A stretch of DNA of 7,203 nucleotides from a virus (IMGVR_UViG_3300018486_000146), one strand, 5' to 3'; counted from the first letter of the stretch, positions 1 through 7,203 are shown. Notes: generated by a model not told the origin, from the letters alone. Program-made: numbers and translations.

Positions 1-22
1 CAGACGTGTGCTCTTCCGATCT
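1..22. other. Illumina TruSeq adapter remnant (CAGACGTGTGCTCTTCCGATCT), a library artefact and not biological sequence
   Basis: Bases 1-22 are the exact reverse complement of AGATCGGAAGAGCACACGTCTG, the start of the TruSeq read-through adapter, as recalled from memory. Confidence 0.85.
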
Positions 23-119
23 CTTTATCCGGTTGTGTGGCCTCCAGCGCCAGACTTCCTGGGCAGCGCATCCATCGATGCGCTGATGATGGAGAAAGTT
101 GTGCGTGAACGTCTGGCAT
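23..119 (-). CDS. 5' part of a further early-left gene, truncated by the window edge and adapter; unknown product, possibly a PD-(D/E)XK/Cas4-like nuclease
   Basis: ATG at 119..117 lies 2 nt after the TAA of the 300-aa gene and is preceded by GGAGGG with a 6-nt spacer. The frame stays open to the adapter boundary and reads [32 protein letters not shown]. The SxSxxxRWxxCPGS pattern recalls the N-terminus of Cas4/RecB-like phage nucleases, but the fragment is too short to be sure. Confidence 0.4.
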
Positions 120-121
120 GA

Positions 122-1024
122 TTAACCCTCCAGTGCTTTTTCAGCCAGGGTGATTACTTCAGCGAGATTTTCATCCGTTACTTCACCAAGTTTCCTGGCT
201 CCCTGTTTTTCCAGAATTGCAATAGCTTCTGCCCGGTAACCCCCTTTTGCTAACTGGAGGATCAACCCTTCAGCTTGTTTGCGTAGTGCCGCGAAATCAA
301 TTGTATGGTCATCTTTGGCGTCATTATTCTGGCTGGAATTTGCTGCGTCTCTGCGTGCAAATTCTTCCTGCAGCTGAAGGTACTCAACACGGTTGATCTC
401 GATATGGCCTTTTTTCAGCATCTCGTTCAACTTGCGTAAGGTGTGGAGTTCACTGGCTGCTGTGCCGGATACATTTTTGACGTAAAACGGCCCCGTGCGT
501 TCTCCATCCTTGTTACTGGCCTTTTTCGGCTTAACTTCATCACGCCCATCCGCAGGTGCATCAAGTAGCTGCTCGGCAAAAGCACGTCGTTCGCCGATGG
601 TTGGCAGGTCGTCCCAGAACTTAAGGATGTTACGGGACAGGTCCAGGAGAGCAGGTTTAAGCAGCGCCCTGGCTCGTTTGACGCCCTGCAATGCGCTGTC
701 GAGAGCATCAATCTGAACTACTCGTTTATCGCCTTCAGCATCACGGTAGGCAACAGCACGTTGCAGCATGTCTTCTGTGATAGGGGTGGCTACCGGGTAG
801 AAACCAGCCAGTGCGATAACGTCGCTGAACTCCAGATCATCCAGTGTCATTGCCGCTGACATATTTTCAGTTTCAGTTGCTGTATCCCGACATTCCTGCA
901 CTCGTGAAATCGTGTCAGGATGCATAACAATGCCTGATGCCATTGTGCGGATAAGACGTTCAAGCAGCGCATTATGTTGTGCCAGAAGTTGATTATTAAG
1001 TTCTAGACTGGTTTCTAAACTCAT
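122..1024 (-). CDS. Hypothetical early-left protein, 300 aa, function unknown
   Basis: Long ORF with an ATG start and a GAGGA Shine-Dalgarno 7 nt upstream. Its ATG overlaps the TGA of the upstream small ORF (ATGA coupling). The protein is predicted helix-rich, has an acidic C-terminal half and is not low-complexity. No family recognised by eye. Confidence 0.8.
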
Positions 1025-1170
1025 ACTGTGGTCCTCGCTACAAGGAGAATGAAAGTGATGATCAGACCGAGCGCAGTGGCAACGGCCAGACCGGTCATCA
1101 AATCGAAGTTTTTACGGCGATAACGGAGAACATCGCGCCCCGTCAGTCGATGGATGTGTTCAGGTTTCAT
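1021..1170 (-). CDS. Small membrane protein, 49 aa with one C-terminal transmembrane helix; possible kil-like or host-toxic early protein
   Basis: ATG at 1170 is preceded by AAGGA with a 9-nt spacer. Alternative in-frame starts are ATG 1191 and GTG 1203 (the ORF-track start). The C-terminus LMTGLAVATALGLIITFILLVA is hydrophobic. The stop overlaps the start of the 300-aa gene. Confidence 0.6.
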   Translation of the reverse strand: MKPEHIHRLTGRDVLRYRRKNFDLMTGLAVATALGLIITFILLVARTTV

Positions 1171-1227
1171 CGGTTGTATTCCTTTTTTCATATCGGGGAG
1201 CACGCTGTTGCGAGTGCGCTTTCAGAC

Positions 1228-1255
1228 ATAAAAAAGCCCGTCACGTGAGGCGGGC
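1228..1255 (-). terminator. Intrinsic terminator on the minus strand, in a tL1-like position
   Basis: On the minus strand the sequence reads GCCCG-CC-TCACGTGA-CGGGC followed by TTTTTTAT: a GC-rich stem then a U6 tract. On the plus strand the A-run precedes the hairpin, so it is unidirectional. It sits between the Cys-rich ORF and the downstream early-left genes. Confidence 0.55.
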
Positions 1256-1286
1256 AAAGACTACACACAGCAATTACATGGATGAT

Positions 1287-1481
1287 TCAGTTGGTATTGT
1301 GCGTACGTGGTACCACAAGGTTGAAGCGGACACGCCAGTGCGTTGCAATGGTATGCAGGAAAGCACCACATCCAGGGCAGTGCTCATAACATTCGTTGAT
1401 TTGGTATCGTTTTGGCTTTGGTGTCAGAAGCTGTGTTTGGCAAGCAGGGCATTCACCTTTGAGCGGTTTATACGTTTTCAC
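1287..1481 (-). CDS. Small Cys-rich protein, 64 aa, putative zinc ribbon (CPAC ... CYEHCPGC)
   Basis: GTG start at 1481 preceded by GAGGA with a 6-nt spacer. Five cysteines in a CxxC...CxxxCxxC arrangement. It is the first ORF downstream of the putative pL and is followed about 30 nt later by the terminator. Only 64 aa with a GTG start, so moderate confidence. Confidence 0.45.
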   Translation of the reverse strand: MKTYKPLKGECPACQTQLLTPKPKRYQINECYEHCPGCGAFLHTIATHWRVRFNLVVPRTHNTN

Positions 1482-1648: not shown

Positions 1649-1677
1649 AAGATACAATTTGAGTTGTATTGTGTAAA
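1649..1677 (-). promoter_or_regulatory. Candidate pL-like leftward promoter (-35 TTTACA, 17-bp spacer, -10 TATCTT) overlapping the left operator
   Basis: Read on the minus strand: TTTACA (plus 1677..1672), 17 nt, TATCTT (plus 1654..1649). The -10 is weak, and the transcription start is not determinable from sequence alone. Confidence 0.3.
1654..1667. promoter_or_regulatory. Candidate left operator: 14-bp 434-type site ACAATTTGAGTTGT
   Basis: Matches ACAA-N6-TTGT, the operator pattern of phage 434-family repressors. Its flank (TTGTATT followed by a -35-like hexamer on the minus strand) parallels the OR-A site at 2475-2488. Confidence 0.5.
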
Positions 1678-2472: not shown

Positions 2473-2474
2473 AA

Positions 2475-2488
2475 ACAATTTTTGTTGT
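2475..2488. promoter_or_regulatory. Right operator site OR-A (ACAATTTTTGTTGT), 434-type
   Basis: Exact ACAA-N6-TTGT match, immediately upstream of the -35 TTGACA of the rightward promoter. Confidence 0.5.
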
Positions 2489-2490
2489 AT

Positions 2491-2520
2491 TTGACAAACC
2501 TCGTTTGTTGTTGCTAAATA
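2491..2520 (+). promoter_or_regulatory. pR-like rightward promoter for cro and the primase-helicase (-35 TTGACA, 17-bp spacer, -10 CTAAAT/TAAATA)
   Basis: Consensus -35 TTGACA at 2491-2496; -10-like hexamer at 2514-2520; about 25 nt upstream of the cro ATG. Operator sites overlap it. Confidence 0.5.
2494..2508. promoter_or_regulatory. Right operator site OR-B (ACAAAC-CTC-GTTTGT), a perfect inverted repeat overlapping the pR -35/spacer
   Basis: Perfect 6-bp arms around a 3-bp centre. ACAA/TTGT ends as in 434 operators, but 15 bp long rather than 14. Confidence 0.45.
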
Positions 2521-2533
2521 CCACTAAAATTGT
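2520..2533. promoter_or_regulatory. Right operator site OR-C (ACCACTAAAATTGT), a degenerate 434-type site over the pR start region
   Basis: ACCA-N6-TTGT, one mismatch to the pattern, between the -10 and the cro ribosome-binding site. Confidence 0.35.
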
Positions 2534-2547
2534 ATGAGGTGAAAGCA

Positions 2548-2760
2548 ATGACCTTAGCGACCCGAGTAAAAGAACGACGTAAAGAACTCAAAATGACGCA
2601 AGTTACGTTGGCTGAGCTCACAGGAGTGAGCCAGCAGGCAATAAACAGAATTGAAAGTGGTGTTATTGCTCGGCCACGTTATCTTCTTGAAATGTCTATA
2701 GCATTGGATTGCGACCCTAATTGGCTGTTGTATGGCTCACAAAACGATAAAAAGGCGTAG
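2548..2760 (+). CDS. cro: Cro-like HTH repressor, 70 aa, phage 434 Cro family
   Basis: ATG 2548 with GAGGTG 6 nt upstream (the ORF-track start at 2530 is TTG). The sequence MTLATRVKERRKELKMTQVTLAELTGVSQQAINRIESGVIARPRYLLEMSIALDCDPNWLLYGSQNDKKA aligns along its length with 434 Cro as recalled. Divergent from cI across the operator region. Confidence 0.9.
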   Translation: MTLATRVKERRKELKMTQVTLAELTGVSQQAINRIESGVIARPRYLLEMSIALDCDPNWLLYGSQNDKKA

Positions 2761-2766
2761 CTCCCC

Positions 2767-4959
2767 ATGTCCGATAGCAAACCATGGGGAGCTACGCCTG
2801 ATGAGTGGTTTCATTTCGACCTGGTATTGGGGAGAACTGATCATCTTCTCCCAGTTGTATGTAACCCCAGTGCGACCATATCCCCTGATAGTAAACTGAA
2901 AGCGTTGGGTAAGACGCCGAGTCGCTATAACCGGGACCGCCAGGTCACCGGTATTGCTCAATGGACCGGGCATGTTGTTACTGAGCATGATTTTGCCCGC
3001 TGGTCGAATGAACCGGATTATGGCATCTGCGTGCGTACAGGCCATGGCTGGCTGGCGCTGGACTGTGATAGCGAAGATGAAGACATTCATGCAGATATTC
3101 GCAAAACGCTTGTGCAACTTCTGGGTGAGTTGCCGCCGCGACGCTGGCGAGCAAACAGTAATAAGTGTCTGTATCTGCTGGCCGTTGATGGTGATTTCCG
3201 TAAGCGTATCCATCGCCTGGCGGGGGATATGGGCATTATCGAGTTGCTGGCGAACGGGCAGCAGTTCGTTGCCTGCGGTACGCACAGCAGCGGCGCGCGT
3301 ATTGAATGGGACGGCGGTTTGCCGGATGAACCTCCGGCTATTACTGGTGAGCAGCTTGAAACGCTGTGGCAGCGCCTGGCTGAACAACTCCCTGTGTCGG
3401 TAACCACCGAAGCGGGCAACACGAAGATGCGCGACCGATCAGCATTCACGCCCGGCGCGACGGATGATACAGCTGAATATCTTGATGCCAATGGCTGGAC
3501 GCTGCTGGATGGCGCAAATGGTGAACGATATATCCGCTGTCCGTTTGAAGACGGCCACAGTAGCGGGGGCGATCCAACAAGCACAGTTTATTTTCCTGCG
3601 GGAACCGCGGGCTTTGAGCAGGGGCATTTTAAATGCCTGCATGCCAGTTGTGCGCATCGTGATGACGGAGATTTCCTTAATGCCATCGGGATCCGCAACG
3701 ACGATTTCGAAGATCTGACCAGCACCGAAGTGGCGGAACCTTTACCGCTGCCTGCTTTCGAGCGTGATAAATGGGGGCGTATCGAGGCAACAATCAGCAA
3801 CGCAGCCAAAGCAGTAGTACGCCCTGATTTTGTGGACATCGATATTCGCTTTGACCAGTTCCGCGACGAAATCATGTTTGCCCCTGCAGGATCCGGACAA
3901 TGGCGGGCATTCACCGATGCGGATTATGCGCGCCTGCGCATCACGATGGAAAAGCGGGGATTTAAACCTGTTGGTCGTGAACTTATTCGCGATGTGGTGT
4001 TACTTGCAGCCGATGAACAACCATTCGATTCAGCGATCACCTGGCTGAACGGACTGGAGTGGGATGGCGTGCCGCGCATCGAATGTTTCTACCATACGCA
4101 CTTCGGTACAGCCGACACGCCTTATACCCGTGCGGTGTCTATGTACATGTGGACCGCGTTGGCGGGGCGAGTACTGGAGCCAGGCATCAAAGCGGATATG
4201 GTGCCGATCCTCGTTGGTCCGCAGGGCTGCGGTAAGTCTTCCGGAGTGGAGGCACTGAGCCCTGATCCTGCGTTTTTTACTGAAATCTCTTTTGCCGAAA
4301 AAGACGATGATCTCGCTCGAAAAATGCGTGGTCGGCTGGTGGCAGAGATTGGTGAACTGCGCGGACTTAATACCAAAGAGCTGGAGTCAATCAAAGCGTT
4401 TGTGACGCGTACTCACGAAAACTGGATCCCGAAATACCGGGAGTTCGCCACCCAGTTTCCTCGTCGCCTGGTGTTCGTTGGTACCACCAATGAGGACGAA
4501 TTCCTTGCGGACAAGACTGGTAACCGTCGCTGGCTCCCCGTGGAAGTGTCGAAAGTCGACGTGAAAGCGATAAAAAGAGATCTCCTTTTACTTTGGGCTG
4601 AGGCTCGTGAGGTGTTTCAGCGTCTGGGGGGTATCCAGTTCCGTGAGGCTGAACAACTGGCAGCGAGTGTCCATGAACAGTACACCATCAAGGATGCTTG
4701 GCTTGAAACGGTAGAGAAATGGCTCGACACGCCAGACCTGATGACTAATGAACTTCCGCGAAATTGCGAATTTTTACGCGCAAGTGATGTTTTGCGTGAT
4801 GCGATTGGGCTAAATCCTGACCGCATCGGAAAACGCGAAGAAATGCGAATTAGTAATGTTTTGCAAAATTGCGGGTATAAGCGTGCCCAAAGGCGAATTG
4901 GGGGGAAAATGACTCGAATTTTTGAGGCGGTGTCCCAACCTGTACCAACCTCAAAATAG
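2767..4959 (+). CDS. Replication initiator: primase-polymerase N-terminal domain, zinc-binding Cys/His cluster, and C-terminal P-loop SF3/D5/VirE-like helicase domain (730 aa)
   Basis: N-terminal DxD motif (LALDCDSEDED) and GTHSSG, consistent with prim-pol. Cys/His cluster CPFEDGH...HFKCLHASCAH. Walker A GPQGCGKSS and an SF3-like motif C (VFVGTTNE). Starts 6 bp after the cro stop. Iterons lie at and after its 3' end. Confidence 0.92.
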   Translation: MSDSKPWGATPDEWFHFDLVLGRTDHLLPVVCNPSATISPDSKLKALGKTPSRYNRDRQVTGIAQWTGHVVTEHDFARWSNEPDYGICVRTGHGWLALDCDSEDEDIHADIRKTLVQLLGELPPRRWRANSNKCLYLLAVDGDFRKRIHRLAGDMGIIELLANGQQFVACGTHSSGARIEWDGGLPDEPPAITGEQLETLWQRLAEQLPVSVTTEAGNTKMRDRSAFTPGATDDTAEYLDANGWTLLDGANGERYIRCPFEDGHSSGGDPTSTVYFPAGTAGFEQGHFKCLHASCAHRDDGDFLNAIGIRNDDFEDLTSTEVAEPLPLPAFERDKWGRIEATISNAAKAVVRPDFVDIDIRFDQFRDEIMFAPAGSGQWRAFTDADYARLRITMEKRGFKPVGRELIRDVVLLAADEQPFDSAITWLNGLEWDGVPRIECFYHTHFGTADTPYTRAVSMYMWTALAGRVLEPGIKADMVPILVGPQGCGKSSGVEALSPDPAFFTEISFAEKDDDLARKMRGRLVAEIGELRGLNTKELESIKAFVTRTHENWIPKYREFATQFPRRLVFVGTTNEDEFLADKTGNRRWLPVEVSKVDVKAIKRDLLLLWAEAREVFQRLGGIQFREAEQLAASVHEQYTIKDAWLETVEKWLDTPDLMTNELPRNCEFLRASDVLRDAIGLNPDRIGKREEMRISNVLQNCGYKRAQRRIGGKMTRIFEAVSQPVPTSK

Positions 4960-5112
4960 ATGTTGGTACATTTTAACTAATTGAATTTAAAGGCCGGTAC
5001 CAACTGTACCATCTGTACCAACCTAATTACTAAGAACCCCATATATATATATAAGTCGCTTGGGGAAAAGGTTTGAAAAGAGCTGGTACAGGTGGGTACA
5101 GGTTGGTACAGG
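4931..5112. repeat. Iteron array flanking an (AT)n tract: putative phage origin of replication
   Basis: Core TGTACCA(ACC) in direct orientation at 4931-4950 (two tandem 10-mers inside the primase 3' end), 4996-5004, 5005-5013 and 5014-5023. ATATATATATATA at 5041-5053. Inverted copies (C/T)(T/G)GGTACAGG at 5083-5092, 5093-5102 and 5103-5112 with exact 10-bp periodicity, plus one inverted copy at 4961-4970. Confidence 0.65.
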
Positions 5113-5240: not shown

Positions 5241-5663
5241 ATGCGTAATATTCAACAGGTTTTAGAGCGCTGGGGTGGCTGGGCAGCGAGTGAAGGTGGT
5301 AGCGTCTACTTTCCTCCTGTTGCAGCCGGGTTTAAGAATCTGCTACCCGCGACGCAGTCTGGAAGGCTGAAATGCAGTGACAATGACGGACTTATCATCA
5401 ACTCCGCTATGAGCTGCCTGAAGAAAAAAGATCCGTATCTGTGCACGCTCCTTGAGTGGCATTACGTCCAGGCCATGCCCGTGCGGGCGATGGGTGAGAA
5501 GCTCGGCGTATCTCACACCCACGTTCTGAAGAGGCTTCAGGCGGCAGAGGGATTTATTGACGGTTGCTTAGCCATGCTGGATGTGGTGCTCGAAATGGAT
5601 CAGTCGGTTCAGTCAAAGCCTCAGGCTATCAGGACTTTGCGTAGGAGCTGCTCGGCGGCATAA
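5241..5663 (+). CDS. Q: Late-gene antiterminator Q, phage 82 / QuuD family (140 aa)
   Basis: ATG 5241 with TAGAGG upstream. Motifs LERWGGWAA, AAGFKNL and KRLQAAEGFIDGCLAMLDVVLEMD align with the E. coli DLP12 QuuD antiterminator as recalled (LERWGAWAA, AAGFKGL, KRLQKAEGIIEGMLMALDIRLEMD). Confidence 0.82.
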   Translation: MRNIQQVLERWGGWAASEGGSVYFPPVAAGFKNLLPATQSGRLKCSDNDGLIINSAMSCLKKKDPYLCTLLEWHYVQAMPVRAMGEKLGVSHTHVLKRLQAAEGFIDGCLAMLDVVLEMDQSVQSKPQAIRTLRRSCSAA

Positions 5664-5694: not shown

Positions 5695-6036
5695 ATGGCT
5701 CTGATCAGCGTTCGCAACAGATTTGAAAGCTTCATGGAACAGAGGTACCCAGACCTGTCGTTGCAGGTCAAAGGTAATATTAGCGCATCAATGAAGGCTC
5801 AACTTGGCATCAGGATTGAACGAGAATTGTACAGTGAAGATGTTACTTACTGTGATTCAGCAGTTCAGTTGATGTGGACACTCTTTCAGGCAGGTGTTCT
5901 GGCCGAACGAAGAGCTACCAGCGTTACGCTTCCTGCGCTGAAGGCAAAGCCGGATAGCTTCTACGATGCGGGTTATAACGAAGGTATTCAGGACTGTCGT
6001 AAACATCTGACGGCATCAGGCATCAAGGTAAGATAA
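5695..6036 (+). CDS. Hypothetical protein, 113 aa, in the Q-to-lysis (stx-equivalent) cargo slot; function unknown
   Basis: ATG 5695 with AAGGGAA upstream. The protein is not low-complexity and no transmembrane segment or signal peptide is obvious. An intrinsic terminator follows about 70 bp downstream. No family recognised. Confidence 0.6.
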   Translation: MALISVRNRFESFMEQRYPDLSLQVKGNISASMKAQLGIRIERELYSEDVTYCDSAVQLMWTLFQAGVLAERRATSVTLPALKAKPDSFYDAGYNEGIQDCRKHLTASGIKVR

Positions 6037-6103
6037 AAAATAGTTGTGGAATTCCAAAAAGCCGATTAGCCTGATATCCGTTGAAAACAGTTCATCACGA
6101 AGA

Positions 6104-6127
6104 GGCTTCCGCAAGGGGGCCTTTTTT
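6104..6127 (+). terminator. Intrinsic terminator downstream of the 113-aa ORF
   Basis: GGCTTCC-GCAA-GGGGGCC forms a 7-bp stem (5 Watson-Crick and 2 G-U pairs) with a GNRA tetraloop, followed by TTTTTT. Confidence 0.6.
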
Positions 6128-6357
6128 ATTGCCCCATTCTGGGGAAAAGTTAATAAAACAGGGCTTTCGCTGCGAAAAAACGCTATGCAGTTTTTGCCCT
6201 TTTTTATGCACCTTTTATTCACTCGAATTTCGTCATTCTGGACCACTTAAGTTGATTAAATAGTCCTTTCATCGCAAATCTATTGCGAGCGGGGATCGTG
6301 TGGTTCCTATAACGTACATTATGTTAAATAACTTCCTTTTTTAACAAATTTAACAAG

Positions 6358-6380
6358 GTTCGCTATGGCGAACTTTTTTT
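6358..6380 (+). terminator. Strong intrinsic terminator upstream of the lysis genes, a tR'-like candidate
   Basis: GTTCGC-tatg-GCGAAC is a perfect 6-bp stem with a 4-nt loop, followed by seven T. It lies about 100 bp upstream of the holin start. Confidence 0.7.
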
Positions 6381-6481
6381 GTATTCAGGGCCCACCGAAG
6401 GACGGCTCATAACCCAATCCTACGGGCGTATACGCAGGGCCCGCCTTTCAACAACACCCCGTAATGGCGGAGGTGGGAAGT

Positions 6482-6823
6482 ATGAAAATGCACAATGCTC
6501 CTCATTCCTGGCCTGACTTACTGGAACTCTTACAAAGTTGGTGGCGTGGAGATACGCCGTTGGGCGCAGTGGTTATGTCAATTGTTATGGCTGGCTTGCG
6601 CATTGCCTATTTTGGCGGTGGCGGCGGCTGGAAACGAAAAACGCTTGAGATTTTGCTCTGTGGTGCTCTGACGCTGACTTTTGCATCCGCTCTTGAGTAT
6701 GTCGGATGGCCTAAATCGCTTTCTGTTGCCATTGGTGGTGGTGTTGGGCTGATCGGTGTCGATGCTATTCGTGGGGCTGCAATGCGAGTAATCGGTAACA
6801 AATTTGGTGGCTCTAAGGAGTAA
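6482..6823 (+). CDS. Holin, 113 aa, three predicted transmembrane segments, with a Met-Lys-Met dual-start motif (possible holin/antiholin pair)
   Basis: GGAGGTGGG at 6469-6477 precedes ATG 6482, AAA, ATG 6488. Hydrophobic segments LGAVVMSIVMAGLRIAYF, LEILLCGALTLTFASALEYV and SLSVAIGGGVGLIGVDAI. The stop lies 3 nt before the endolysin start. The ORF-track start at 6464 falls inside the Shine-Dalgarno and was rejected. Not similar to lambda S by eye. Confidence 0.8.
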   Translation: MKMHNAPHSWPDLLELLQSWWRGDTPLGAVVMSIVMAGLRIAYFGGGGGWKRKTLEILLCGALTLTFASALEYVGWPKSLSVAIGGGVGLIGVDAIRGAAMRVIGNKFGGSKE

Positions 6824-6826
6824 TTT

Positions 6827-7203
6827 ATGCAGGTACTAAATTCCCAGCGTAAAGCTTTCCTGGATATGGTGGCATGGTCAGAAGGAACGGATAACGGGCG
6901 ACAACCGACACGTAACCACGGTTATGACGTTATTGTTGGTGGTGAACTGTTTACTGATTACTCCGATCATCCTCACAAACTTGTCACGCTAAACCCGAAA
7001 CTTAAATCAACAGCTGCCGGACGTTATCAGCTTCTTTCCCGTTGGTGGGATGCTTACCGTAAACAGCTTGGTTTGAAAGACTTCTCCCCCAAAAGCCAGG
7101 ACGCTGTGGCATTGCAGCAGATTAAAGAGCGTGGCGCTTTACCGATGATTGATCGCGGTGATATTCGTCAGGCTATCGACCGTTGCAGCAATATCTGGGC
7201 TTC
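6827..7203 (+). CDS. R: Endolysin, lambda R-type lytic transglycosylase, 5' portion (truncated by window end)
   Basis: AAGGAG 6 nt upstream of ATG 6827. The translation MQVLNSQRKAFLDMVAWSEGTDNGRQPTRNHGYDVIVGGELFTDYSDHP...RCSNIWA is nearly identical to lambda R as recalled, including the catalytic-glutamate motif AWSEGTD. The open frame runs to the window end. Confidence 0.95.
   Translation, partial: MQVLNSQRKAFLDMVAWSEGTDNGRQPTRNHGYDVIVGGELFTDYSDHPHKLVTLNPKLKSTAAGRYQLLSRWWDAYRKQLGLKDFSPKSQDAVALQQIKERGALPMIDRGDIRQAIDRCSNIWA

Follow-up and report, generated by a model that had tools for sequence, protein, structure and literature searches.

A split replication module with a probable iteron origin in the immunity region of an APSE/YeP4-type Escherichia coli prophage

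How does a temperate phage replicate and establish lysogeny when a single gene stands between cro and Q in its early right arm? This question is raised by a 7,203-nt stretch of viral DNA (IMGVR_UViG_3300018486_000146; hereafter the window), in which cro is followed after 6 nt (2761-2766) by a gene for a 730-aa primase-helicase, and then by an iteron cluster and Q (Table 1). In lambda, by comparison, the early-right order is cro-cII-O-P-ren-nin-Q. The initial annotation had described this arm as a very compact operon closer in logic to satellite modules, and all the features that it named lie where it had placed them. We find that the window covers the immunity and early genes of a temperate E. 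coli prophage, whose early arrangement is of the APSE/YeP4 type. As a whole, it is most probably explained by a split replication module, comprising a Rep-type initiator with an iteron origin 3' of its gene, under the control of CI and Cro.

Table 1. Features of the window, with positions counted from its first nucleotide.
Feature	Position	Strand	Basis
DUF2800 / PD-(D/E)XK nuclease, first 39 codons, cut by window edge	3-119	-	
Conserved early-left protein, 300 aa, function unknown	122-1024	-	phrog_6784 E=1.5e-179
Small ORF, 60 aa from GTG (49 aa in RefSeq)	1021-1203	-	phrog_11981 E=3e-36
RprA-like element	1226-1335	-	Rfam RF00034, 50.5 bits, full-length model
CxxC...CxxC zinc-ribbon ORF, 64 aa, unannotated candidate gene	1287-1481	-	weak Pfam below cut-off
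Candidate PL-like promoter, TTTACA, 17 nt, TATCTT	1649-1677	-	promoter scan
CI-type repressor, HTH + S24 LexA-like autocleavage domain, 207 aa	1804-2427	-	Pfam
cI-cro operator/promoter region	2473-2535	.	operators 2473-2490, 2518-2535
Cro-like HTH regulator, 70 aa, ATG 2548, TAG 2758-2760	2548-2760	+	HTH_3 E=1.7e-14
Replication initiator, 730 aa	2767-4959	+	Pfam, PHROGs, phmmer, AF2, Foldseek
Prim-Pol/AEP primase domain, residues ~1-215	2767-3411	+	
SF3 VapE-type helicase domain, residues 427-639	4045-4683	+	
Predicted C-terminal winged-helix-like domain, residues ~665-722	4759-4932	+	AF2
Probable iteron origin	4931-5110	.	repeat analysis; 281-bp gap after 730-aa gene
Q-type late antiterminator	5241-5663	+	PF06530 E=5e-42; phrog_79
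ORF between Q and lysis genes, 113 aa, function unknown	5695-6036	+	phrog_37465, phrog_343
Hairpin + T-run, terminator-like, upstream of holin	6355-6376	+	scan
Lambda-family holin	6464-6823	+	PF05106 E=1.2e-27
Endolysin gene start, cut by window edge	6827-7203	+	aligns to annotated endolysin genes

This prophage is present in approximately 45 complete E. coli genomes, and a near-identical copy (L001, 99% identity) served as the source of the left-arm genes beyond the window. The same gene order occurs in APSE-1, YeP4, vB_EcoM-689R2 (L003), a Klebsiella prophage (L005), and a Salmonella prophage (L006). In APSE-1 and YeP4, as in the window, an S24-type repressor is divergent from a small HTH gene, which is followed after a gap of 3-6 bp by a gene of ~720-750 aa with a VapE helicase at its end, and then by an iteron cluster and Q. 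On the other side, both phages encode a ~300-aa protein, DUF2800 exonuclease, gp2.5-like SSB, and PolA and, further on, a VRR-NUC-type nuclease, SNF2/DEAD helicase, excisionase, and integrase. A Pfam scan of L001 recovered this set from DUF2800 to integrase, with the start of DUF2800 being the part encoded within the window and the remaining genes read from L001. The early region of APSE-1 comprises P1 (repressor), P2, P3, and P5 (Q-like) and, leftward, P53-P51-P50-P45-P44-P41-xis-int. The structural modules differ: APSE is a P22-like podovirus and YeP4 a podovirus, whereas the annotation of L001 contains structural genes of contractile-tail type; APSE also has toxin cargo after Q. Synteny of these early genes across APSE, BPP-1, Bcep, Xfas53, and YeP4 has been described (PMC8579659). 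The arrangement is thus shared by related phages and was already known from APSE-1 (1999), so its novelty is low, an outcome for which the initial annotation had allowed. In the APSE paper, P3 was termed an 'ATPase', p2-p5 were grouped under genome packaging, and no origin was described.

The regulatory circuit is lambdoid, with CI (HTH plus S24), Cro, and Q all encoded. The repressor (a 'LexA family protein' in RefSeq) matches Peptidase_S24 (E=2.3e-21) and HTH_3 (E=1.2e-12); its ATG is at 2427, and the open frame extends to 2478. Cro is 57% identical over 63 aa to the N-terminal DNA-binding domain of the repressor, identifying the two proteins as paralogues. They share operators of the form ATACAA-N6-TTGTAT, located in two divergent control regions. 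Three sites of this pattern (at most one mismatch) occur in the window, all of them in these regions, compared with 0.03 expected. One, the perfect palindrome ATACAATTTGAGTTGTAT at 1652-1669, overlaps the candidate PL, and a weaker ACAA...TTGT site (2492-2509) lies between the two cI-cro operators. A first guess at the operator, ACAAAC-N3-GTTTGT, was dropped as it was not enriched (7 of 200 shuffles reached its count). The candidate PR (TTGACA 2492-2497, 18 nt, TAAATA 2516-2521) was not listed by the promoter scan; both promoters are assigned from operator overlap and reading by eye. Neither the generic promoter scan (6 found, 8.1 expected in shuffles) nor the generic terminator scan was enriched over shuffled sequence.

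Between cro and the primase-helicase gene, and between the origin and Q, nothing is encoded. Within the reach of HMM searches, cII, O/P, and nin are absent from the right arm, as had been annotated. Nine ORFs from the gaps were compared with Pfam in search of a hidden cII, with no match (0/9). O-like and P-like genes were likewise not detected, the sole gene between cro and Q having no O or P domain (Pfam, PHROGs), and no O or P product is annotated anywhere in L001. The CII family gave no Pfam or PHROGs match except phrog_4836, a generic HTH overlap common to Cro and CI. The initial annotation had also pointed to the rest of the prophage as a place for an integrase and for cII or cIII analogues. 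The integrase is indeed present, next to yfhL, and no analogue was detected by homology, a search whose reach ends short of very small or non-homologous analogues. Compared with PHROGs, the small left-arm proteins yielded no CII, CIII, or N; Xis-like and ANR/PerC-like proteins were found instead. Lacking cII does not set this prophage apart among temperate phages.

A cII-like role could be played by a small regulator that is not homologous to CII, although we regard this as unlikely. Two candidates come into question. The first is a 71-aa PerC/ANR-type protein from the left arm of L001, which matches Pfam at E=4.6e-4, below the cut-off, and also matches phrog_10396, a 'transcriptional activator'; the second is the 64-aa zinc-ribbon ORF, which has invariant Cys residues and lies directly left of the candidate PL. 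However, both lack an HTH and show no resemblance to CII families, no Phage_CII-type match was obtained among the ORFs scanned, and no link connects either protein with cI transcription. Moreover, the slot that the zinc-ribbon ORF occupies, between cI and the left operon, is variable, and the ORF is absent from 689R2, L005, and L006. With only three clusters in a collection of 5.8 billion proteins, across which the Cys residues are invariant, and with no HTH, this ORF was rejected as a firm gene and as an HTH protein.

The reading of a single primase-helicase as the replication module did not survive inspection of the left arm. Further replication genes lie leftward of cI, and the start of DUF2800 falls inside the window, where the first 33 residues translated from 3-119 match the N-terminus of the L001 protein at every position (PF10926 over the full protein, E=3e-110). 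In L001, the operon leftward of cI encodes DUF2800/PD-(D/E)XK, an Enc34/gp2.5-type SSB (PF10991), Nmad5, a family-A DNA polymerase, VRR-NUC, and an SNF2 helicase. With polymerase, SSB, nucleases, and helicase supplied by this CI-controlled operon, the replication module extends beyond a single gene and is split across the repressor gene. The first gene of this conserved early-left operon is the ORF at 1021-1203, which is annotated in L001, L003, and L005. The 300-aa protein gave no match in Pfam, NCBIfam, or PADLOC and is locally similar to APSE-1 P53, the protein encoded at the corresponding position. Two plus-strand left-arm ORFs compared with PHROGs, Pfam, and PADLOC gave no CII, CIII, N, or defence match.

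Alternatively, the primase-helicase and its origin may form the whole module, P4- or PICI-like and dependent on the host Pol III replisome, with the left-arm genes serving accessory purposes such as repair, recombination, or anti-defence. This is improbable. The right arm does hold no other replication gene, and SaPI Rep/Pri together with ori is enough for replication in S. aureus (PMC9371898); in addition, the Pfam match of the left-arm polymerase to the PolA model is partial (residues 275-457, E=2.7e-14). Set against these points, the primase-helicase is accompanied by conserved DUF2800, gp2.5-like SSB, PolA, VRR-NUC, and SNF2 helicase genes in all the relatives inspected, spanning E. coli, Klebsiella, Salmonella, Yersinia, and Hamiltonella phages despite their differing structural modules. 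Further, this five-gene set is regarded as the replication module of Enc34-like phages (PMC5686142), and duf2800-gp2.5-polA is a conserved module (PMC8093625). DUF2800, Enc34-type SSB (PF10991), PolA, VRR-NUC, and helicase in the left arm of L001, together with the VapE-type primase-helicase, correspond to the components listed for Enc34, and the duf2800-gp2.5-polA module occurs in Enc34/chi-like and many other phages. In the Enc34-like lytic phages these genes form one block, whereas here the CI/Cro switch separates the primase-helicase and origin from the rest, and the two replication parts sit in divergent repressor-controlled operons.

Within the split module, the right-arm component is the 730-aa initiator, named 'VapE domain-containing protein' in RefSeq. 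Pfam identified a VapE-like domain (PF05272, residues 427-639, E=2.3e-60) and, when the N-terminal part was scanned alone, a Prim-Pol domain (PF09250, residues 51-185, E=1.4e-10), the latter with 42.3 bits against a gathering cut-off of 22.8. The initial call of prim-pol plus a VirE/VapE-type helicase was therefore correct. The motif D99-x-D101 and H173 are invariant across 27 homologues, and a Cys/His-rich linker separates Prim-Pol from helicase. The protein matches phrog_256 and phrog_1156; NCBIfam gave no match for the whole protein or its N-terminal part. Over its helicase part, the protein shows homology to SaPI1 Rep (7pds; phmmer E=8e-34), a relationship also recovered by Foldseek (E=8e-18, ~460 aligned columns, ~22% identity to Rep1), which matched the Prim-Pol to pRN1 ORF904 (1ro0, 3m1m; E ~5e-5) and NrS-1. 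The full-length AF2 model, with an overall pTM of 0.38, is poor at 505-587 (the ATPase core) and 257-324 (the Cys/His region) and usable in the N- and C-terminal parts only. At the C-terminus it places helices at 672-680 and 689-701 and strands at 704-711 and 714-721 (pLDDT ~70-83); the order of these elements and the whole-chain alignment to 7pds, rather than a separate domain match, suggest a winged helix. The predicted wing residues of this domain are KRAQRRIGGKMTRIF in one version and KRERKSIDGKQQRIF in another.

Directly 3' of the initiator gene, where the initial annotation had placed the origin, lies a cluster of iterons with the sequence TGTACCAAC. Ten matches (at most one mismatch) occur in the window, compared with 1.4 expected by chance and a count of 10 reached in none of 200 shuffles, and nine of the ten fall within the 180 bp of 4931-5110. 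Two direct copies lie in the last codons of the 730-aa gene (4931, 4941), followed by an inverted copy at 4962 and three direct copies with a 9-bp period at 4996-5022. After an AT tract (5023-5060) that contains ATATATATATATA, three inverted copies follow with a 10-bp period (5082-5110), and the two iteron sets together form a long inverted repeat. A literature search for a description of this origin found none.

Position and geometry are common to six loci, namely the window and five related ones, while the iterons differ: TGTACCAAC in the window and L005, TAGACAACC in YeP4, TGTAACAAC in APSE-1, GTA(A/T)CCACC in Salmonella, and AGGTGACGG in 689R2. Across these relatives, iteron sequence tracks the C-terminal half of the initiator, a co-variation that is qualitative and spans six loci. 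The 689R2 protein shares 52% identity with the 730-aa protein over the N-terminal 407 residues, but its C-half is unrelated and of the DUF5906 type, and the 689R2 iteron is unrelated as well. Conversely, APSE-1 P3 shows no relationship to the Prim-Pol over its N-terminal third, but its C-terminal 420 aa are 71% identical, and the APSE-1 iteron is related. For the YeP4 protein, identity is 73.6% across 98% of its length. Domain-level swapping within the initiator gene is thus evident across the relatives. It is very improbable that the cluster is a regulatory array acting on PR read-through into Q, or a packaging or partition site, instead of an origin: it does stand in the PR-to-Q transcription path, with no separate Q promoter from the promoter scan, and its long inverted repeat could also act as RNA, but opposed iteron sets around an AT tract directly 3' of a Rep-type helicase gene follow the SaPI origin design, the last codons of the initiator gene already contain iterons, iteron sequence tracks the initiator C-half, and the terminase small subunit gene is sited elsewhere, past the lysis genes.

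The likeness to satellites and PICIs proposed in the initial annotation is therefore real, both in homology to SaPI1 Rep and in origin geometry (PMC9371898). As in SaPIs, the origin-like cluster is directly downstream of the gene, with oppositely oriented iterons on either side of an AT-rich centre. SaPI1 Rep1 (7PDS) and SaPI5 PriRep5 (7OLA) possess a homologous SF3 helicase, and the fusion of primase to helicase is as in PriRep5. In the SaPI mechanism, a C-terminal winged helix binds iterons at an ori with an AT-rich centre directly downstream of rep, and the helicase is self-loading; Rep1 and PriRep5 show ATP-independent origin binding and melting, hexamer formation, and helicase activity (PMC9371898). 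By analogy, the winged helix of the initiator would bind the TGTACCAAC iterons flanking the AT tract 3' of its own gene, and the VapE-type SF3 helicase would load itself, presumably as hexamers on both sides of the tract. The N-terminal Prim-Pol would then make primers for elongation by the family-A polymerase, with the gp2.5-like SSB, DUF2800 nuclease, VRR-NUC, and SNF2 helicase from the leftward CI-controlled operon. Lambda-type O/P would not be needed because the helicase would load itself. Unlike the window, SaPIs are satellites without a DNA polymerase and have iterons of five or six nucleotides rather than 9 bp; the present element is a complete temperate phage with PolA, SSB, and nucleases, and its host is Gram-negative.

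Phage P4 offers a further parallel. Its alpha protein unites a primase, an SF3 helicase, and a C-terminal origin-binding domain for short iterons in one polypeptide, as here; however, the alpha primase is bacterial DnaG-like rather than Prim-Pol/AEP, and P4 depends on an additional distant repeat site, crr. The homology and Foldseek matches of the 730-aa protein included no P4 sequence. With lambda, the prophage shares an S24 CI, a divergent Cro expressed from multipartite operators, Q upstream of a lambda-family holin, and an origin within the PR transcription path. Unlike lambda, it lacks cII, O, P, and the nin region, and an N gene was not found. The lambda origin is inside the initiator gene and that of the window outside it, and in lambda the host DnaB is recruited by P, whereas here the helicase is phage-encoded and predicted to load itself.

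The position of the array raises the speculative idea, to which we give little credence, that the lysis-lysogeny choice is made without a CII-type sensor and that initiator occupancy or firing at the iterons gates transcription from PR into Q, which would be reached solely by PR transcripts crossing the initiator-bound array. Were this so, origin gating would replace the delay that N and the nin terminators impose on late-gene timing in lambda, and replication and late genes would be coupled directly to CI/Cro occupancy through one operator type and two divergent promoters. Reading the 730-aa protein as a Rep-type initiator with an adjacent origin opens no new mechanism but makes the replication origin of this prophage type open to test. 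The type is known from E. coli, Salmonella, Klebsiella, Enterobacter, and Yersinia, as well as from APSE, a phage of an aphid symbiont. Under a lambdoid CI/Cro/Q switch, the family brings together a satellite-style initiator-origin cassette with a T7/Enc34-style polymerase set.

Downstream of the origin, Q and the lysis genes are present as annotated, and the terminator-like hairpin before the holin gene is a candidate tR'-type site for Q action. The 113-aa ORF is absent from 689R2, with the alignment to L003 breaking at 5698-5980, and the endolysin fragment gave no Pfam match. At the opposite end of the window, the RprA-like element scores below the RF00034 gathering threshold (50.5 vs 70 bits), and only its 3' half, comprising a seed-like stretch and the terminator, is similar, with a 46-nt stretch 87% identical to the native rprA 3' end. 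Its predicted fold shows no stability beyond that of shuffled sequences (z=0.26), and a literature search for a prophage RprA-like sRNA found none. An attachment site was also considered and rejected for this piece: the integrase and prophage end adjoin yfhL, ~10 kb to the left. The 3' part (~1230-1275), a terminator-like hairpin with a U-run, is a conserved leader of the early-left operon, and the element is conserved up to 1283 in L003, L005, and L006. The hairpin (1230-1256, minus strand), missed by the terminator scan as its loop is too long for the tool, lies after the candidate PL and ahead of the left-arm replication genes. This conserved RprA-like terminator before the left operon is the oddest incidental observation of the analysis.

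The 730-aa protein was initially annotated as a prim-pol joined to a VirE/VapE helicase, a domain content that both Pfam and Foldseek bear out. A Pfam search placed a VapE-like domain (E=2.3e-60) at residues 427-639. A scan restricted to the N-terminal third added Prim-Pol PF09250 (residues 51-185), whose 42.3 bits exceed the cut-off of 22.8; both domains are precomputed in many homologues. The only solved structure matched by sequence was 7pds (E=8e-34), the SaPI1 Rep1-DNA complex (PMC9371898). An AlphaFold2 model with 27 homologues in the alignment was confident at residues 1-215 and 330-470 and poor at residues 257-324 and 505-587, and its C-terminal end (672-721) follows the winged-helix order of helix, helix, beta-hairpin. 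Foldseek comparison with the PDB returned SaPI1 Rep1 as the top match (E=8e-18, about 460 columns), followed by the pRN1 ORF904 prim-pol, the NrS-1 prim-pol and helicase, and SaPI5 PriRep5.

An ordered repeat array lies directly 3' of this gene's stop codon. The gene's last codons hold two direct TGTACCAAC-type iterons, after which come one inverted copy, three direct copies with a 9-bp period, an AT tract containing ATATATATATATA, and three inverted copies with a 10-bp period. Allowing up to one mismatch, ten iteron matches were found in the window, against 1.4 expected by chance (none of 200 shuffles reached ten), and nine of them fall within 180 bp (4931-5110). This gene and array match the published design of SaPI origins and Rep, in which rep is followed immediately by the origin, oppositely pointing iterons stand either side of an AT-rich centre, and a self-loading helicase recognises the iterons through its C-terminal winged helix (PMC9371898). 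We conclude, from homology and anatomy, that 4931-5110 is the predicted origin and the 730-aa protein its putative initiator, helicase and primase. The initial annotation was thus right to place an origin 3' of the primase-helicase, and its satellite- or PICI-like replication logic holds for SaPI-like initiation, given the Rep1 homology and the array design.

The same array geometry occurs behind the homologous gene, at the same place, in five other loci. The iteron itself is specific to the locus: a Klebsiella aerogenes prophage (L005) shares the window's TGTACCAAC, and Yersinia phage YeP4 (TAGACAACC), APSE-1 (TGTAACAAC), a Salmonella prophage (L006; GTA(A/T)CCACC) and vB_EcoM-689R2 (AGGTGACGG) carry other versions. 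As judged from these sequences, iteron type tracks the C-terminal half of the putative initiator. The 689R2 protein is 52% identical over its N-terminal 407 residues, with an unrelated, DUF5906-type C-half and an unrelated iteron; P3 of APSE-1 has an entirely different N-terminal third, a 71% identical C-half and a related iteron. The VapE-type proteins share a near-constant predicted recognition helix, and every change of iteron is accompanied by a change in the terminal hairpin. Compared with these two and the Klebsiella homologue, the predicted initiator gene is mosaic at the domain level; relative to the latter, identity is 32% in the prim-pol part (residues 1-215) and about 95% at residues 331-640.

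Of 5426 complete E. coli genomes, 45 carry prophages 99% identical to the window; left-arm gene content was read from one of these prophages (L001) and checked by Pfam. Here, the operon leftward of cI runs on past the 300-aa ORF to encode a DUF2800/PD-(D/E)XK nuclease (E=3e-110), whose start is encoded at the window's left edge, an Enc34/gp2.5-type ssDNA-binding protein (E=2e-44), a 687-aa family-A DNA polymerase followed by an ANR/PerC-like protein, VRR-NUC, an SNF2-type helicase and an Xis-like HTH protein; a tyrosine integrase gene adjoins yfhL. Phages are known to carry duf2800-gp2.5-polA as a replication module (PMC8093625; PMC5686142), and in all the relatives examined the left-arm set and the primase-helicase are conserved together, despite differing structural genes. 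Divided between the two arms, these genes therefore make up a putative replisome that would be largely self-sufficient. A compact, single-gene replication module, as initially proposed, is thus wrong, and the satellite likeness is confined to the initiator-origin cassette.

The same operon contains genes for an Nmad5 (nucleotide modification associated domain 5) protein and a DUF4406/nucleoside 2-deoxyribosyltransferase-like protein, hints that the prophage may modify DNA bases. Two ORFs of ~230 aa lie inside it on the opposite strand, without a match in Pfam, PHROG or PADLOC; one plus-strand ORF, likened by position alone, occurs at a comparable place in each of L005 and 689R2. These ORFs are possibly lysogen-expressed cargo.

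The novelty that had been implied for the arrangement does not stand. In APSE-1, a 1999 deposit, the order is the same (P1 repressor, P2, a 3-bp gap, the 752-aa P3, iterons and the Q-like P5), and the other side carries P53, P51 (exonuclease), P50 (gp2.5-like), P45 (polymerase), P44, P41 (helicase), xis and int. APSE early genes have been tabulated, with P3 entered as an ATPase and no origin described, and stated to be syntenic with those of BPP-1, Bcep phages, Xfas53 and YeP4 (PMC8579659). This makes the arrangement a known and widespread one. The present analysis adds a functional reading of P3-type proteins and a predicted origin with co-varying iterons.

The right arm does lack cII, O/P and nin, as initially described. 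There is no room for a gene between cro and the primase-helicase, ORFs in the window's gaps gave no domain match, and Pfam and PHROGs detected no CII, CIII or N family member in the window or left arm. A 64-aa ORF is the only small one that had been overlooked; it is predicted to encode a zinc ribbon, and the absence of cII stands. This ORF has only three clusters in a 5.8-billion-protein collection, with invariant cysteines, sits in a slot that varies between relatives, and overlaps an RprA-like element at its 3' end. The whole APSE/YeP4-type group lacks cII, and the gene is commonly missing from non-lambdoid temperate phages as well.

Cro shares 57% identity with the DNA-binding domain of the repressor. 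The palindromic operator ATACAA-N6-TTGTAT has three sites when at most one mismatch is allowed, where 0.03 would be expected, and weaker copies flank the leftward site. The -35 hexamers of candidate PR and PRM, read by eye, overlap back to back at 2492-2498 (TTGACAA). This layout indicates putative OR/PR/PRM and OL/PL-like control regions, and operators at both would place both halves of the replication machinery under CI.

The RprA-like element scores 50.5 bits over the full-length model, under the gathering score of 70. Its 3' stretch, AAUUGCUGUGUGUAGUCUUUGCCC with a hairpin and U-run, matches the 3' end of the native rprA of essentially every E. coli genome at 87% identity over 46 nt. Unannotated copies of the full 131-nt element occur in 58 complete E. 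coli genomes. In 689R2, L005 and L006 the piece is kept before the early-left operon, and homology to these relatives ends exactly at the upstream edge of the conserved piece, 1283. If PL lies where the operator indicates, transcription must cross this terminator to reach the polymerase genes. The element could serve as a terminator, one that has to be read through or antiterminated, or give rise to an sRNA that mimics RprA.

An ORF map and domain scans, from which the window's gene layout in the table was drawn, agree with the coordinates and gene order first assigned.

Features of the window and related prophages
Locus	Feature	Coordinates	Strand	Details
Window	DUF2800 nuclease gene, first codons	3-119	minus	
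Window	Conserved 300-aa ORF	122-1024	minus	
Window	Small ORF	1021-1203	minus	
Window	600-bp stretch	1204-1803	minus side	no RefSeq annotation
Window	RprA-like element	1226-1335	minus	core 1230-1275; Rfam RF00034
Window	64-aa ORF	1287-1481	minus	unannotated; CxxC...CxxC, two CxxC pairs
Window	Leftward promoter-like site	1677 to 1649		
Window	Operator, perfect	1652-1669		overlaps -10 of leftward site
Window	CI-type repressor	1804-2427	minus	HTH, Peptidase_S24
Window	Operators between cI and cro	2473-2490, 2518-2535		
Window	Cro-like gene, 70 aa	2548-2760	plus	HTH_3
Window	730-aa ORF	2767-4959	plus	starts 6 nt after cro
Window	Three direct iterons	4996-5022		
Window	AT tract	5023-5060		
Window	Three inverted iterons	5082-5110		
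Window	Gap, 730-aa ORF to Q			281 bp
Window	Q	5241-5663	plus	PF06530, E=5e-42
Window	113-aa ORF	5695-6036	plus	between Q and holin region
Window	Terminator-like hairpin		plus	between 113-aa ORF and holin
Window	Lambda-family holin	6464-6823	plus	
Window	Endolysin gene, start		plus	after holin
L001	DUF4406 protein	14215-14514	minus	
L001	Nmad5	17540-18181	minus	
L001	~230-aa ORFs	13240-13950, 16857-17546	plus	
L005	Left-arm ORF	768-1472	plus	
L005	Homologue of the 730-aa protein	10001-12217		
689R2	Left-arm ORF	6041-6670	plus	

The 113-aa ORF, which has PHROG matches of unknown function only, is an insertion relative to vB_EcoM-689R2 and is likely a moron. The E. coli prophages, 99% identical elsewhere, do not align to positions 1-21 of the window. 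The mismatching bases alter the product of the DUF2800 frame beyond residue 33; an edge effect of the window or contig, or else a local sequence variant, may account for this.
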